DNA of 64,000 bases from a virus (taxonomy: Duplodnaviria; Caudoviricetes), in the IMG/VR virus record IMGVR_UViG_3300035208_008180. One strand, given 5' to 3'. A model generated the notes under the pieces. The model worked only from the letters and a program-made list of their open reading frames with translations, did no database searches and was not told where the DNA came from. Shown here piece by piece: positions 2,143 through 41,994 of the stretch. Position 1 is the first letter of the stretch; each line of letters begins with the position of its first letter. The translations under genes were made by a program, and so were the position numbers.

Positions 2143-2145
2143 AAA

Positions 2146-2369
2146 ATTTGTCATCTCATAAGCGGAATTCTGTTTACAACCATCATTTATCTCACATTGC
2201 TGTGGTCTTTCGACTGCCTCTACCCGACTTCTCAGGGTCACTCACGCCCTCAGTCTGTTTGAGTTGCATCCTCGGTAGTTCGGACGAACAAAGTTCTCCT
2301 ACCTTAAAAGTGATGATGTTCCGACTTTCCTCTACGGATTGCTCCGCAGCGATGGTTCGGATGACAAAT
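2146..2369 (-). ncRNA. rnpB: RNase P RNA, minimal (catalytic domain only, 224 nt)
   Basis: P1 ATTTGTCATC/GATGACAAAT; P2 AACCATC/GATGGTT; P3 CTGCGGA-GCAA-TCCGTAG; CR-I GAGGAAAGTCGGAA pairing with CR-V ACAGAATTCCGCTTA (P4); P5 CATC/GATG; P6 TCACT/AGTGA; P7 GGTAG/CTACC; L15 GGTA; AGATAAAT before the P2 3' strand. Confidence 0.88.
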
Positions 2370-6682: not shown

Positions 6683-6837
6683 TTGACCCTTAAAATAGCG
6701 AAACTTGGATGGGTTGGTTGTCTTAGGCGGTTGGGTAAAACCCAAACCCTCGACCAATGCTCCAAATCTCACTACCTCCTTTATATAGTACGTTCGAGAA
6801 AAAATCAAGCCCAAATTCCGAAAAATTTTTTTCTAAG

Positions 6838-6965
6838 TCCGACGACCCGGAATCGAACCGGCTATTACCCGAATGTTGCAACACCCAAAGTAACTTGAGC
6901 ATCAAGCCATTTCGCACCCAAAATCTACCCATATGTCTCGAATTTGGATACGTGCCTGTCATCGG
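6838..6965 (-). ncRNA. tRNA-like RNA with enlarged arms (128 nt)
   Basis: Acceptor CCGATGAC/GTCGTCGG-A, T-arm CCGG-TTCGATT-CCGG, three internal hairpins; own promoter at 6971-7000. Confidence 0.65.
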
Positions 6966-6970
6966 TCATC

Positions 6971-7000
6971 ATTATACTTCAGATTTCGCCGTTGTAAACC
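6971..7000 (-). promoter_or_regulatory. conserved sigma70-type phage promoter GTTTACA-N16-TATAAT
   Basis: GGTTTACAACGGCGAAATCTGAAGTATAAT; motif recurs at least 12 times in the window. Confidence 0.8.
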
Positions 7001-7007
7001 AAAAAAA

Positions 7008-7251
7008 ATGGCAGGTTGGGCTTGAGTACCAACTACGAACTTTGAACACCAATTTTTCGTTATTTCCCCAACGTATCAAGTGCCGTGTCTTCGTTGGGTC
7101 GGTGCCAGGGTCTAATCGCTTTGTCCTTTCCCTTGCGGGGAAGGCACGAAGTAGTCACCTACACTCACCGGGCACTACCGGATAGCTCGTGTCACCCAGT
7201 AGGCTTTCGCCTACCCTCATTGCGAAGCGTGTCCATCCACGCCGCTGCCAT
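7008..7251 (-). ncRNA. putative structured ncRNA (about 244 nt) with tRNA-like ends
   Basis: Closing stem ATGGCAG/CTGCCAT; D-like arm GCGTG-GATGGA-CACGC; T-like arm GTTGG..CCAAC; GNRA hairpins GTAGGC-GAAA-GCCTAC, GTAG-GTGA-CTAC, CCC-GCAA-GGG; promoter at 7277. Confidence 0.65.
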
Positions 7252-7276
7252 ACACCGAGGTGTATCTGACAATGCC

Positions 7277-7305
7277 ATTATACTTCAGTGCCTGGATTTG
7301 TAAAG
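7277..7305 (-). promoter_or_regulatory. conserved phage promoter
   Basis: CTTTACAAATCCAGGCACTGAAGTATAAT. Confidence 0.75.
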
Positions 7306-7514
7306 TCCGAATCCAGCCATTTGCAACATTCGTCAAAACCCTCAATGTGGAGGGATTGCTCTTCCTCTGTCAGTTCAACCTCTGGCGGTATTTTGACGGG
7401 CATTGGTCCAAAAAACGTATCTCGGAAAATGCCGGAAGAATTGATTTCATAGACAGCCCAAGCACCACCATAACCATCAGAGGTTATCTTGAGAATCCAT
7501 TCTTTTAATTTCAT
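7278..7514 (-). CDS. hypothetical protein
   Basis: 78-aa ORF. Confidence 0.5.
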   Translation of the reverse strand: MKLKEWILKITSDGYGGAWAVYEINSSGIFRDTFFGPMPVKIPPEVELTEEEQSLHIEGFDECCKWLDSDFTNPGTEV

Positions 7515-7535
7515 GATTTAATGTCCTAAAAGAAG

Positions 7536-7709
7536 CGTGGGGGGTAGGCATCGAACCTACGTCTTTGGTTCCGCAAACCACTGTCTTTACGCATCAATAT
7601 CCTTGCATCTTCTTTCCGACCAGCTTTCGTCGGATGTCCAAAACAACAATATCAATGCGTCCTGCCGTAGTATGTACACTTAGGCGGCAGCCAACTAAAC
7701 GACTCCCAC
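7536..7709 (-). tRNA. tRNA-Arg(GCG)-like gene with about 100-nt structured D-loop insertion
   Basis: GTGGGAG..CCCCCAC-G; D-stem GTTT/AGAC split by insert 7590-7690; TGGT-TTGCGGA-ACCA; GTAGG-TTCGATG-CCTAC. Confidence 0.7.
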
Positions 7710-7713
7710 ATAA

Positions 7714-8151
7714 TCAGTTGAAAGTTGCTGAGTCTACAAGTTTGGCAAGGACGCTCATTACGAATTGCTTGCTCATGCCCTCGGAGTCACAATGTGGTTT
7801 TCCATCTTTGAGATAAAAAACCACTTCTCCAAAGCCTGCCGAGACGGTGGCCCAATGTATCCCAAAGCTGCTTTCCAATTCAACTTTAGTTACATTCCAA
7901 TCAGGCTCTTTGCCAGTATTGATGGCATCCAACATGGAATCAAGAGCACTAGGGTCTTTTGCCTCAACTTTACCTTCCCGGCAAAGTCTGGCGATGTTTT
8001 GTCTTTCTTCTTCGCTAGCTTCTTGGGGCGACGGGCCAAAATATGTGTCTACCGTCTCTCTGAGAAATTGTTCGGTGGCTTCTGTGCCAATCAATTTCTC
8101 CAATTCACGCAATTCCTCAATAGGCTCTTCCTCAATAGGTTCATCACCCAT
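7714..8151 (-). CDS. hypothetical protein
   Basis: Acidic ORF overlapping the upstream stop. Confidence 0.55.
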   Translation of the reverse strand: MGDEPIEEEPIEELRELEKLIGTEATEQFLRETVDTYFGPSPQEASEEERQNIARLCREGKVEAKDPSALDSMLDAINTGKEPDWNVTKVELESSFGIHWATVSAGFGEVVFYLKDGKPHCDSEGMSKQFVMSVLAKLVDSATFN

Positions 8152-8410
8152 GATCTTTCCTTCCATATTCATTTAGTGTTCTGCGTCCCCGTGCTCGTTC
8201 TTCATAGTGGTCAAAACACATAGCCAGTGGTTGTTTGTCTTTATTCCACCACAACAACACATCAGCAGCTTTGCCGCAGATAACGGGTTCAGATTTGGGT
8301 CCATTAGAAAAATCAACGACAAACATACAGACATGTTCCTCTTTTGGAGGGACTGAAGTAACCCAATCTGGGTCTCCCGGCACCCGTTTGCGGTATCTGC
8401 GTTGTTTCAT
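8144..8410 (-). CDS. hypothetical protein (leaderless)
   Basis: ATG 6 nt after TATAAT of promoter 8417-8446. Confidence 0.55.
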   Translation of the reverse strand: MKQRRYRKRVPGDPDWVTSVPPKEEHVCMFVVDFSNGPKSEPVICGKAADVLLWWNKDKQPLAMCFDHYEERARGRRTLNEYGRKDHG

Positions 8411-8416
8411 ACAGGC

Positions 8417-8446
8417 ATTATACTTCAGAAAAGCCCGTTGTAAACC
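8417..8446 (-). promoter_or_regulatory. conserved phage promoter
   Basis: GGTTTACAACGGGCTTTTCTGAAGTATAAT. Confidence 0.8.
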
Positions 8447-8480
8447 CGTTAAATCTATGCCCCTACCCCCTAAATACAGT

Positions 8481-8717
8481 ATGGCAGAAGTTAAACCTAT
8501 TTTTGGCAGTGAAATCAAATACAGCAATGCCAATAACCAATTATCAAGATTACAGAATCTATTAAATCAAACAGTCAATATCACTCCTGTTTTGCCTCCA
8601 GTGAGCGGCATTATGGCATTAACAATAATTGAAAAATCAAACAATAAACTATCCCAATTACAAAGTCAATTAGATCACATACATAATATTGCCCAAAATG
8701 GGGCAACCAATGTCTGA
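8481..8717 (+). CDS. hypothetical protein (possible late gene)
   Basis: MAEVKPIFG.. after TAAATA; start trimmed from 8235. Confidence 0.45.
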   Translation: MAEVKPIFGSEIKYSNANNQLSRLQNLLNQTVNITPVLPPVSGIMALTIIEKSNNKLSQLQSQLDHIHNIAQNGATNV

Positions 8718-8731
8718 ATAAGTGGAGAAAC

Positions 8732-9073
8732 ATGGCCGACTACACAGCAACTGGAAAAATAACCATTAAAGGTTGTGCTCTTCCAATTAAAGTCACCGAA
8801 TATTATACATTTCCTTTTGGAATAGGGTCTGTACTCTATGTTATTGCCAAGGCACGAAAAGGCGTTTTAGAAAAAGTGGTAATAAAAAAAGTAAACCTTA
8901 CAGGCTTTGATGGCAAAGCCCCGGTCTACAATTATGTGGATACCACAAACCGAGTATGGTTTGAAAGAGAACTAACATGGCAATCCACAGCAATTGAACT
9001 TGCCACGAATTTTATAGAAACAGAGATCGCACAATATCAATGCGATGAGAATGTAGTAGTGTCCTACTCTTGA
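8732..9073 (+). CDS. hypothetical protein
   Basis: 113-aa ORF with GGAG RBS. Confidence 0.6.
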   Translation: MADYTATGKITIKGCALPIKVTEYYTFPFGIGSVLYVIAKARKGVLEKVVIKKVNLTGFDGKAPVYNYVDTTNRVWFERELTWQSTAIELATNFIETEIAQYQCDENVVVSYS

Positions 9074-13174: not shown

Positions 13175-14279
13175 CTGCTTCTCCTTCTTGTAATAGGCGA
13201 CGTTCTGAAAATCTAAACTGAGAACCACTTTCCAACTCTACATACAAATGCAAATTTGTTGGCTCAATCCAAGACTCACTGCCACAACGGCGTTGATCTC
13301 CTGGTCGGTAAGTATAGCGACTATTCCATTCGTGGTGCAACACACCGTCTTTGAGAAAAACTCTCTCTCTAGTCTCCACATAATCTACTTTTGTGGGATC
13401 ATCATATTTGTAGTGTGTCGCACACTCCACATACTCTTCATTGGGAAGTTTTGCAAACCAAAAATCGTAATCCCAGTAATTTTTTCTGGGTTTTGGAGCG
13501 TATTCTTTTGTAAATAATCTTGCGACTTTGCTGCCGTAGATAGATTTGGCAAACTTGTCCATAAGTTCAGCATAATTCGGCACAGGTGTTGACGAATTAC
13601 AAACTGCCAAAGATTTTACATTATCCAACAGCACAAAATCTTCCTTGCCAACTTTGACAAACACCCACTTCTTGAGAGGTGTTTTATTAGATGGAAAACC
13701 CTTATGGTCCAATTCCACAGTATAATGGCAATCGAACTTGCCCAAATAAATCAGAACCCCCTGTTTCTTCGTTGTGTAAGATGCCCCCGGAATCAAATCC
13801 TTGGCCTTAACACCCTGCCCCTGAAGCTCGGTGAAATTCTGCGAATTTTTATAATCCTGAGAACATGCGGGCAGCAAAACCAACTCCGTCCCATCCCAAG
13901 CAAAAACAAACTTTCCTTCAAGTCCTTTGCCCCGACTACAATCGCATTCCCGCAGAATGAAAAGCAAATTAGCAACTGAAATTTCAAACTCGAAATCTCG
14001 GGGATCATACACCCGAATATATTCATTGCGAGCATTCCAACCATATGAATGTCGGGCTCCTCCTACACCCTTATTCAAAACAAACCCTTCGGTTGGCACA
14101 TTGGAACACTCAATTGGATCAATCTTTTTATCCCGCCAAGACTGCCAAGATTTCTCTTTCCTGAGAACGCCTTTCTGGTCATAATAAATCACATATGCCA
14201 ATTTCTTGGTATAGGTGCCCTCCCTATTTTGGAAGCCCACCTTGATTTTCTCTGGAATGAATAGCTGTTTTTGATCCAT
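13167..14279 (-). CDS. hypothetical phage protein
   Basis: 370-aa ORF with RBS; RVYDPRDFEFEI motif; no function recognised. Confidence 0.7.
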   Translation of the reverse strand: MDQKQLFIPEKIKVGFQNREGTYTKKLAYVIYYDQKGVLRKEKSWQSWRDKKIDPIECSNVPTEGFVLNKGVGGARHSYGWNARNEYIRVYDPRDFEFEISVANLLFILRECDCSRGKGLEGKFVFAWDGTELVLLPACSQDYKNSQNFTELQGQGVKAKDLIPGASYTTKKQGVLIYLGKFDCHYTVELDHKGFPSNKTPLKKWVFVKVGKEDFVLLDNVKSLAVCNSSTPVPNYAELMDKFAKSIYGSKVARLFTKEYAPKPRKNYWDYDFWFAKLPNEEYVECATHYKYDDPTKVDYVETRERVFLKDGVLHHEWNSRYTYRPGDQRRCGSESWIEPTNLHLYVELESGSQFRFSERRLLQEGEADG

Positions 14280-30415: not shown

Positions 30416-31822
30416 CTAATCCTCCGAGGGGCTGTTATCGCCACACATTTTCACAATCTTCGGATTAAAGGTTGCAACAATTTCAACCAAATCCGATTGA
30501 GCCGCCATAACTGTATCAATATCTTTATAGACCCCAGGGCTTTCGTCTGCCGTGGCGTCCAAGACAATGACACCTTGCCGATCCAAGTTACCTTGGACAG
30601 CTTTCCAAACATATTTTTCTTTGGCTTTTTTACGAGACATCAATCGCCCCGCCCCGTGAGAAGCAGAACAAAGACTCGCCGGATTACCTTTGCCCACCAC
30701 AATATAAGCAGGCGTGCCCATCGAACCAGGAATTACACCCAGCATACGATGGCTTGCAGGGGTTGCTCCCTTACGATGCACCACTACCTCGCCTTGATTC
30801 GGATCATGCGTTTCAAGGAAAGCGAAATTGTGATGATTCTCTACATTAAATAAAACTTTGGCTCCCAAATTCTGAGCCATAGCCTTGTGAATCAATTGAT
30901 GATTGGCTTGAGCGAATCGACCCATCAATTGCATTGCGAGCCAATATTCCTGCCCATCATTGGATGCCAAATCCAACCATGCCAGATTTTTCAAATCGTC
31001 ATATTTCTTCGGCAACTTGGATTGAGCAACCCCGTGATACATTTGGCATACTGCTGCCCCCGGTCCCCGAGAACCTGAATGAGTCATAATTGCCACATAC
31101 TCACCAGGGAGCAGCCCAGCAATATCTGCAAGCGATGGCGAATTTTGTATTTGCAGAATGCCGACATCAATAAAATGATTTCCGCTACCCGAAGTTCCTA
31201 GCTGCTTCCAGGCTTTGTCTTTTTGCTGTTTGGTGACTCTGGTAATTCCCCAATCCTCATCCATAACCGGATGATTTTTGGGCTGATCGAAGACCGCATT
31301 TCCGCCGTCGCCAATACCAAAACGAGTGCTCTTGGCAATCGCTTCCCTGTACAAATTAAATTTCTTTTCCAAGGAATTGACTGGCATATCTAGGATTGAC
31401 AAGCTCATACGGCAAGCAATATCGACGCCGACCGCATTCGGACATACGGCTCCTTGCAAAGCCAAAACCCCACCAATGGGCAGTCCGTAACCAACATGAC
31501 AATCTGGCATAACGGCGGCAGTAACCGCCATCGGCAATGAACAAGCTTGCTGCATTTGTCCGTCACAACCCTCTTCCAACGACCCCCATACCTTGTAGGG
31601 GATAGCAGCAGATCGAACAAACTGTTGCTCTTGAATTAGAAGATTGGCTAAATCTCCGAAGTGTTTATCTCCGACATATTCCTGAGGGTTGGTGAAGAAA
31701 GTCTTCATGATAGCCTTGATATTGCGATCATCGCCGCCCTCTCGGGCTACACGAATAGCATCGACCGCAAGACGGGCACAATCCTCAGGACATCCAAGTT
31801 TAACAAGCTGTTTGCCGTTCAT
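30416..31822 (-). CDS. rtcB: RNA 3'-phosphate/5'-OH ligase RtcB
   Basis: MPDCHVGYGLPIGG, VGVDIAC, GTSGSGNHF, HSGSRG, HHNFA, HRKGAT, PGSMG, SHGAGR, DESPGVYK. Confidence 0.96.
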   Translation of the reverse strand: MNGKQLVKLGCPEDCARLAVDAIRVAREGGDDRNIKAIMKTFFTNPQEYVGDKHFGDLANLLIQEQQFVRSAAIPYKVWGSLEEGCDGQMQQACSLPMAVTAAVMPDCHVGYGLPIGGVLALQGAVCPNAVGVDIACRMSLSILDMPVNSLEKKFNLYREAIAKSTRFGIGDGGNAVFDQPKNHPVMDEDWGITRVTKQQKDKAWKQLGTSGSGNHFIDVGILQIQNSPSLADIAGLLPGEYVAIMTHSGSRGPGAAVCQMYHGVAQSKLPKKYDDLKNLAWLDLASNDGQEYWLAMQLMGRFAQANHQLIHKAMAQNLGAKVLFNVENHHNFAFLETHDPNQGEVVVHRKGATPASHRMLGVIPGSMGTPAYIVVGKGNPASLCSASHGAGRLMSRKKAKEKYVWKAVQGNLDRQGVIVLDATADESPGVYKDIDTVMAAQSDLVEIVATFNPKIVKMCGDNSPSED

Positions 31823-40651: not shown

Positions 40652-40728
40652 TGGAGCTAGAGGGAGTCGCACCCTCAGTTACCAACGTACCCATTGTAGG
40701 TTTTACGTTAGACTCGCTTTGTAGCCCC
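40652..40728 (-). ncRNA. mini tmRNA-like RNA (tRNA-like domain only, 77 nt)
   Basis: GGGGCTA..TAGCTCC-A with G3.U70; no D-stem; helix CTAACGTA/TACGTTGG closed by a 14-nt loop; T-arm GAGGG-TGCGACT-CCCTC. Confidence 0.72.
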
Positions 40729-41871: not shown

Positions 41872-41994
41872 TGCAACCAACTGGAATCGAACCAATATTT
41901 CTCCGGTGTCGGGAACGTTTTGCCTTAGGCCGCTTTTTGCCAACCCTTGTTCTAGAATTGAATTAGTTATTACGACCCCTTAAACTATAGTTGC
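41872..41994 (-). ncRNA. tRNA-like RNA with hairpin insertion in D-loop
   Basis: GCAACTA..TGGTTGC acceptor; D-stem GTTT/AAAC split by about 50-nt hairpin; ATTGG-TTCGATT-CCAGT; degenerate anticodon arm. Confidence 0.6.

Follow-up and report, generated by a model that had tools for sequence, protein, structure and literature searches.

To our knowledge, the bacterial and phage tRNA interruptions with demonstrated removal are all self-splicing introns in the anticodon loop. The group I introns among them are considerably longer than the 102-nt insert described here, which lies in the D-loop of a tRNA-Arg(GCG) gene of a huge phage. Like this insert, group I introns of bacterial and phage tRNAs interrupt an otherwise intact tRNA gene, but they sit in the anticodon loop and have a core that Rfam detects (63.9 bits for the one in the tRNA-Met gene of the same phage), whereas the D-loop insert gives no match. 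D-arm introns of archaea and algae are usually much shorter and belong to cellular genomes, not to bacterial viruses. The non-canonical tRNA introns of Crenarchaeota and of Cyanidioschyzon merolae (PMC3728597) resemble the phage insert in that they interrupt the D-arm region of a tRNA that is canonical in other respects, and their removal by proteins followed by RtcB-type sealing would apply to the phage insert as well. However, they need a strict or relaxed bulge-helix-bulge (BHB) motif formed by exon-intron pairing and an EndA/Sen endonuclease; for the phage insert, neither a viable motif nor such an enzyme was found.

When run in its eukaryote mode, tRNAscan is not known to model introns outside the anticodon loop, so the inserts of Lak megaphages, which were predicted in that mode, should lie there. 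These "enigmatic" tRNA introns, one of which may encode a tRNA (PMC6784885), are the nearest phage precedent, being tRNA inserts of huge phages with a removal mechanism that is likewise undemonstrated. For Lak megaphages, alleles with and without the insert were aligned (PMC6784885, Devoto et al. 2019); the present insert differs in its D-loop position, in its two plain hairpins and in that no allele without it was found.

Two further kinds of stable RNA offer partial likenesses. T4 rnaC and rnaD (species 1 and 2) and the YrlA Y RNAs are small stable RNAs in or near tRNA clusters, as the predicted phage RNA would be. In its predicted fold, T4 rnaC joins a T arm of tRNA type to a closing stem and long hairpins, and a tRNA-type anticodon arm shows in neither the rnaC nor the rnaD fold. 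The tRNA-Arg(GCG) gene shares the architecture of rnaC and rnaD (T arm, closing stem, extra hairpins and a tRNA neighbourhood), with no sequence relation found; in contrast to these RNAs and to the YrlA-like neighbour, it keeps a canonical anticodon arm and the Arg identity set and carries its extra domain in the D-loop. The intervening sequences of bacterial 23S rRNA are excised by RNase III without religation, and the pieces are held together by pairing. They are, like the phage insert, helix-closed, about 100 nt long and set in a loop of a stable RNA, which makes them a model for a two-piece tRNA; the cases differ in that one cut in hairpin 2 of the phage insert would leave hairpin 1 behind, and RNase III is encoded only on a high-GC contig. 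We know of no fragmented tRNA of this kind, and full-text literature searches turned up no case of a large structured D-loop insert in a tRNA of bacteria or phages. The D-loop insert of the phage tRNA-Arg(GCG) is a real and unusual case that belongs to no known intron type.

The interrupted tRNA-Arg(GCG) gene

The DNA analysed here (the window, 64,000 nt) comprises bases 32001-96000 of contig C200 in a binned assembly (G000; 6.2 Mb, completeness 96.7%). C200 is a huge phage misplaced in a bacterial bin: it is 340,072 bp long at 40% GC, against an assembly average of 64%, and 65 tRNAs are called on it by ARAGORN, nearly all on the minus strand. The same bin holds ~1 Mb of further low-GC contigs, such as C137 (145 kb), C226 (102 kb), C242 (97 kb) and C44 (76 kb). 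Since C200 ends in tandem repeats, the phage genome may exceed 340 kb, or several phages may share the bin. Minus-strand positions 7709-7536 form a canonical class I tRNA-Arg(GCG), interrupted once by 102 nt in the D-loop, with the following parts.

7691-7709, minus strand: tRNA 5' part, read directly as acceptor 5' strand GUGGGAG, U8 C9, D-stem GUUU and D-loop A14 G15 U16 U17 G18 G19
7589-7690, minus strand: intervening sequence of 102 nt between G19 and A20, self-folding and matching no known family
7536-7588, minus strand: tRNA 3' part, running through A20 A21, D-stem 3' strand AGAC, A26 and anticodon arm GUGGU/UUGCGGA/ACCAA to a 4-nt variable loop, T arm GUAGG/UUCGAUG/CCUAC, acceptor 3' strand CCCCCAC and G73
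7572-7574, minus strand (plus strand cgc): anticodon GCG, reader of CGU and CGC

An earlier note on this DNA had described a nearly intact tRNA-Arg(GCG) with a D-loop insert of about 100 nt. All the elements it described are found at these positions on the minus strand, and 19 of the 21 stem pairs form (A6.C67 and G27.A43 fail), which is at the low end of, yet inside, the range of the 65 called tRNAs of the phage. With the insert in place, the tRNA goes uncalled by ARAGORN and Rfam RF00005 gives only a partial match (16.1 bits, E 1.5); with the insert deleted in silico, ARAGORN calls a 72-nt tRNA-Arg(gcg) with stems of 7/4/5/5 bp and a 7-nt anticodon loop. Direct reading finds every core base (U8, A14, G18 G19, A21, U33, G37, G53 U54 U55 C56 and A58), and the Levitt pair 15-48 is possible between G15 and C48. 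CCA is not encoded in the gene. A 5' part that fits equally well, defined by at least 6 of 7 acceptor pairs, U8, a D-stem of 4/4, A14 and GG, arose in 1 of 20,000 shuffles of the 500 nt upstream, and the minus strand of the window has no second such site.

In every tRNA site of the ribosome, the tRNA elbow (G19:C56) is contacted, and the insert is wedged between the elbow base G19 and A20. The bacterial Arg identity set consists of A20 (the main determinant), C35, U or G36 and A or G73 (PMC9976931). All four elements are present in this gene (A20, C35, G36 and G73), with A20 directly after the insert, and the four other Arg tRNAs of the phage, with anticodons CCU, UCG, CCG and UCU, each have an A directly after G18 G19. 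No second reader of CGU and CGC was found on C200 or any other low-GC contig; a GNN tRNA is present in 7 of the 8 four-codon boxes when tRNA-Arg(GCG) is counted, and CGU and CGC make up 29% of the Arg codons in the long ORFs of the phage (13.7 per 1000 codons). The intact core, the identity set, the canonical anticodon loop and the fit to the anticodon gap together suggest that this tRNA is meant to decode, and the gene is genuine and probably still used. Because the insert abuts A20 and adjoins the G19:C56 elbow, the contacts made by ArgRS and the ribosome suggest that decoding would not be possible with the insert in place.

The insert folds into two hairpins, which include all the helices named in the earlier note.

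7662-7690, minus strand (insert bases 1-29): hairpin 1, CUGCCG / 17-nt loop / CGGCAG, beginning at the first insert base
7589-7660, minus strand (insert bases 31-102): hairpin 2, ending at the last insert base

Hairpin 2 is built of a 13-bp stem, ACGCAUUGAUAUU/GAUAUUGAUGCGU (three G-U pairs), segments of 4 bp and 2 bp, and a 6-bp tip, UCCGAC/GUCGGA, with the loop GAAAGCUG. Folded alone, the insert reaches -40.7 kcal/mol (z -5.83, 0 of 200 shuffles as low) and has 35 pairs, 6 of them G-U, while its antisense strand reaches -29.5 kcal/mol; the G-U pairs and the energy difference indicate a fold specific to the tRNA strand and hence structure at the RNA level. Both ends of the insert are flush with the two helices, and the predicted fold has no pairing between insert and tRNA parts. 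Its position is the length-variable part of the D-loop, and G18, G19 and A21 remain free. If the two hairpins were stacked end to end, bases 1 and 102 would adjoin, and helix geometry would then allow the insert to project from the D-loop with G19 and A20 kept together.

The insert occurs once in the 6.2-Mb assembly, where the remaining matches are 14-15 nt long (E >1), and an Rfam search at the locus with E up to 10 places it in no family. A mobile element or palindromic repeat was rejected on account of this single copy and of the absence, by eye, of terminal inverted repeats or a target duplication. An insert-encoded peptide was also rejected, the only ORF having 4 codons, as were the 6 bp seen by eye between CCUAAG in the loop of hairpin 1 and UUUAGG, the ribosome-binding site of the downstream gene, which were judged no better than chance. 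Mini-tRNA-shaped inserts have been reported in the anticodon loops of some phage tRNAs; this form was rejected here, as a T-loop-like loop is found in neither hairpin.

Neighbourhood, RNA-processing genes and relatives

The tRNA-Arg(GCG) gene occupies a 199-nt gap between two small ORFs, in a stretch that contains several other candidate RNA genes.

7714-8172, minus strand: upstream 152-aa ORF, with its stop codon 4 nt before tRNA position 1; homologues P0001-P0006, no Pfam match
7278-7514, minus strand: downstream 78-aa ORF, starting 21 nt past G73, with the tRNA trailer supplying an AGGA ribosome-binding site of its own
8417-8444, minus strand: promoter-like site TTTACA-16-TATAAT, 11/12, a consensus match only
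about 7008-7252, minus strand: 244-nt non-coding RNA with its own 11/12 promoter-like site; no Rfam match at E up to 5
6838-6965: 128-nt tRNA-like RNA with a 3-nt "anticodon" loop
5491-5595: YrlA-like RNA 2 kb from the tRNA, a weak Rfam match (20 bits), anticodon arm absent

From the site at 8417-8444, a single transcript would run through the 152-aa ORF, the tRNA and the 78-aa ORF. Identical promoter-like sites lie on the minus strand at 7277-7304, directly before the 244-nt RNA, and at 6971-6998, directly before the 128-nt RNA. In RNA libraries from peat and wetland samples, contigs match the 244-nt RNA at ~95-97%, one of them as a discrete piece of ~240 nt (239 nt), and this RNA appears to be conserved and is probably expressed. 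When three RNA-library runs and one DNA run were compared with positions 6800-8800, zero RNA-library contigs fell over 7536-7709, a count that carries no weight either way, and DNA contigs identical to the window covered parts of it.

Several genes that could take part in tRNA maturation or repair are encoded on the same contig.

30416-31822, minus strand: RtcB RNA ligase (Pfam 293-299 bits), a possible sealing enzyme
2143-2368, minus strand: phage RNase P RNA (Rfam RF00010, bacterial class A, 58.6 bits, E 1.3e-17, end-to-end)
C200 175838-176203: CCA-adding-type nucleotidyltransferase (125.8 bits)
C200 132587-132933: tmRNA (119.6 bits)
C200 about 13382-13551: group I intron in the tRNA-Met gene (63.9 bits)

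RtcB had been named in the earlier note and is confirmed at these coordinates with a Pfam score of 299 bits. It lies 23 kb from the tRNA-Arg locus, beside a metallophosphoesterase, in a setting that resembles a cassette for RNA repair. RtcB cannot join 5'-phosphate/3'-OH ends, such as RNase III, RNase P and RNase Z leave behind. Its presence in jumbo phages has been read as serving the repair of nuclease-cut tRNAs (PMC7824862). The RNase P RNA scores below the gathering score of 100, and most of its specificity (elbow-reading) domain is missing, with ~140 model positions replaced by ~42 nt; judging from its sequence, it might mature the 5' ends of tRNAs that have extra bulk close to the elbow. 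CCA is left unencoded in 64 of the 65 phage tRNA genes, as it is in tRNA-Arg(GCG). Searches of C200 gave no ArgRS (such as one lacking the domain that reads A20), archease, RNase III or Rnl2-type ligase; within the bin, ArgRS and RNase III are on high-GC contigs only, and the archease gene is confined to a contig that does not belong to the low-GC, phage-like set. Genes for Rnl2-type RNA ligases were seen on other low-GC contigs of the bin (C226, C144 and C137).

Homologues of the flanking proteins lead only to an identical phage (100%) in a second sequencing run (L147) and to one relative lineage without the tRNA. The phage is present at full identity in landfill and groundwater runs, and a single genotype of the locus is known, the same in independent runs. 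A single close homologue of the 152-aa protein, 71% identical, is encoded on five short metagenome contigs, and on all five just 2 nt separate its gene from the 78-aa gene. In alignment, ~200 nt with the whole tRNA unit correspond to ~10 nt in the relative, and the sequences are otherwise collinear at 79-92% identity. The whole tRNA gene is missing from the relative, so that lineage can dispense with the tRNA. The earlier note had proposed looking for insert-less alleles in relatives; this search was run, and the sole relative lacks the entire gene, so that no insert-less allele was seen. The 128-nt RNA (window 6831-6965) is also missing from this relative (L005/L006), which has a different structured segment of 182 nt nearby (L005:1093-1273). 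By these sequence comparisons, the RNA genes of this island behave as gain-or-loss cassettes that are swapped.

Wider searches were made at several levels. When the locus and the insert were compared by BLAST with 50,697 phage records, no homologue and one chance match (E 0.9) came up; viral contigs, scanned with sequence patterns and proteins, gave no homologue of the tRNA or the insert; and no homologue of the interrupted tRNA was found in genome contigs, with protein and exon-pattern searches, or in 100 relatives of the binned bacterium. A pattern for the 3' half found at least 120 tRNA-Arg(GCG) genes in metagenome contigs, and those listed are ordinary, uninterrupted and unrelated. The predicted insert-less junction, GUUUAGUUGG joined to AAAGACAGUGG, was seen neither in viral contigs nor in the assembly that contains the window, and the 31-mers across it are absent from that assembly.

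Two minor matches came up in these comparisons. A very short groundwater DNA contig (153 nt, run X3) has 5 differences to 7533-7571 (T arm and acceptor 3' strand) and diverges at the anticodon region; it may stem from a co-occurring phage in which a related tRNA gene carries a different anticodon. On L015 (Ga0307992_1015529), ~2659-2822, there are two tandem tRNA-Arg(GCG) 3' halves unrelated to the window; in the second, the acceptor 3' strand differs and there is no 5' half to match, while GC-rich hairpins precede it, and it may be a chimeric or pseudo tRNA.

Removal, retention or decay

How could such a gene give rise to a useful tRNA? We tentatively read it as a working tRNA-Arg(GCG) whose insert must be cleaved out, whether or not the ends are then resealed, and consider this plausible though short of probable. 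The gene would be co-transcribed with the flanking small ORFs from the promoter-like site at 8444-8417, and its ends would be matured as in the other tRNAs of the phage, by RNase P, possibly with the phage's own RNA, and then by addition of CCA through the phage nucleotidyltransferase. Until its removal, the insert would act as a block, abutting the main ArgRS determinant A20 and adjoining the G19:C56 elbow. It would be cleaved out at both helix ends, which would lie side by side if the hairpins stack end to end, and the tRNA would be either resealed, by RtcB or another ligase, or kept as two pieces held by the acceptor and D stems. Only after this removal would the tRNA be charged and read CGU and CGC.

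Removal is favored by the canonical 72-nt tRNA that remains without the insert, which has the full Arg identity set and fills the anticodon gap, and by its normal 7-nt anticodon loop, unlike those of the neighbouring tRNA mimics. The tolerant D-loop site, the helix-flush ends and the lack of pairing with the exons point the same way, since random disruption seldom lands so, as do the fold specific to the sense strand and the maturation genes of the phage (RNase P RNA, CCA-adding-type enzyme and RtcB), an unencoded CCA being common in its tRNAs. Against removal stand the searches for an EndA-type endonuclease, a viable BHB and a ribozyme match, none of which found one, and the nature of RtcB, which is generic in jumbo phages, unlinked to the locus and unable to seal 5'-phosphate/3'-OH ends. 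The absence of the gene from the relative, the two stem mismatches and the wealth of tRNA-shaped RNAs with extra domains in this region also weigh against it, and neither a homologue nor an insert-less allele turned up in the sequences searched. We know of no mechanism in bacteria or phages for the removal of a D-loop insert. A more specific version, namely, a new protein-dependent phage tRNA splicing without ribozyme or BHB, in which a two-hairpin pro-sequence at A20 blocks charging, a hairpin-recognising nuclease cuts at both helix ends and RtcB reseals the D-loop, strikes us as decidedly unlikely. Removal of the insert would mean that bacteria or phages possess an undescribed activity that cuts and rejoins tRNAs, and the position of the insert against A20 suggests a way of holding a tRNA inactive until it is processed.

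The earlier note had left a choice between a spliced intron and a tRNA scaffold. Both are likelier than a dead gene and the evidence does not decide between them, but archaeal-style splicing, which the note had brought up, is unsupported, as no viable BHB and no EndA were found. An intron of the archaeal or eukaryal type would be cut by a splicing endonuclease at a BHB and sealed by RtcB, and the RtcB gene on the phage contig and the D-arm-region introns of archaea and the red alga Cyanidioschyzon (PMC3728597) would suit it, but this explanation is largely refuted. BHB and relaxed hBH/HBh' motifs, as defined in PMC3728597, were sought at the exon-intron junctions, as the earlier note had advised, and no viable motif was present; the insert pairs with neither part of the tRNA, and the sole BHB-like geometry requires a register that deletes A20, A21 and the D-stem 3' strand, a non-viable arrangement that was matched equally well in 517 of 2000 (26%) shuffled inserts. 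An EndA-type endonuclease (PF01974) was not found in the whole 96.7%-complete assembly at E up to 1, in a search with positive controls in 6 of 14 control genomes, and the confinement of archease to a contig outside the low-GC, phage-like set also argues against this type. Among the hallmarks of such introns, only the RtcB-type ligase is present, while a viable BHB motif and PF01974 were not found. A self-splicing or self-cleaving ribozyme, be it an intron of group I or II or two small nucleolytic ribozymes, is very improbable. Such elements are not foreign to the phage, as its tRNA-Met carries a true group I intron, and the ends made by small self-cleaving ribozymes would suit RtcB. However, 102 nt arranged as two plain hairpins leave no room for a group I core, no RF00028 core or other ribozyme family was found at the locus at E up to 10, and no hammerhead, twister or similar core was seen by eye. 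The remark that the insert is too short for a group I or II intron agrees with this outcome, given that the search without a match at the locus does find the tRNA-Met intron.

Should the insert be kept, the 174-nt RNA (plus CCA) would be a stable tRNA scaffold in which the tRNA body supplies stability and the signals for processing, with the hairpins as its working part, acting off the ribosome, e.g., as a decoy or in protein binding, which we regard as possible while leaning against it. The surroundings speak for such a scaffold: the same 3-kb stretch has further tRNA-shaped RNAs that carry extra domains and have promoters of their own, including the 244-nt RNA matched by RNA-library contigs, and three ~126-nt tRNA-like units elsewhere on C200 have a conserved D-arm-side module with a covarying hairpin. 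The insert itself is placed in the tolerant part of the D-loop, with G18, G19 and A21 free and its ends adjacent if the hairpins stack; an RNase P RNA without the elbow-reading domain suits tRNAs with bulky elbows; and T4 rnaC and rnaD, stable RNAs in the T4 tRNA cluster, provide a precedent. Nevertheless, a scaffold would not explain why the anticodon is exactly the missing one, while the clear mimics duplicate anticodons or have lost the loop, or why the complete Arg identity set and the canonical anticodon loop are preserved. A variant in which the RNA decodes despite the insert is unlikely, as the elbow is contacted in each tRNA site of the ribosome. If the insert is kept, the gene would be a natural tRNA scaffold with a complete anticodon arm and would add to the evidence for a family of oversized tRNA-shaped RNAs and for a pared-down RNase P RNA that might process them. 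It is unlikely that the gene is disabled or decaying, that is, a tRNA-Arg(GCG) into which DNA was recently inserted and whose RNA is functionless. This would agree with the loss of the whole unit from the nearest relative, where it is dispensable, with the two stem mismatches and with a single genotype that is identical in independent runs, and disruption of a sole copy would also leave the anticodon gap. But only ~2-3 of ~72 insertion points lie in the tolerant part of the D-loop, and the insertion is there and flush with helices; it has 6 G-U pairs on the sense strand, whereas in a DNA palindrome both strands would pair to the same extent; the assembly has one copy of it, which speaks against a repeated or mobile element; and every universally conserved tRNA base is intact.

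Other tRNA-shaped RNAs of the phage

T arms with matching acceptor strands that are uncalled by ARAGORN were also seen at 40653-40728 (76-nt RNA) and 41873-41994 (122-nt RNA) of the window. C200 21398-21482 holds an 85-nt tRNA-Arg(UCU)-like sequence, likewise without an ARAGORN call, that has ~12 extra nt between acceptor and anticodon arm. Three tandem tRNA-like units of 125-128 nt lie at C200 333600-334080 (L138:201-681, minus strand), each with a 7/7 acceptor stem and a T arm, and with anticodon loops GAA, GUU and CCU. They have in common a ~55-nt module between acceptor and anticodon arm, on the D-arm side, which is different from the tRNA-Arg insert and contains a covarying hairpin (GGACAA/UUGUCC, GGAUGG/CCAUCC and GGAUAA/UUAUCC). 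The 3' motif of this module appears again at C200 334357-334422 and 334528-334669.
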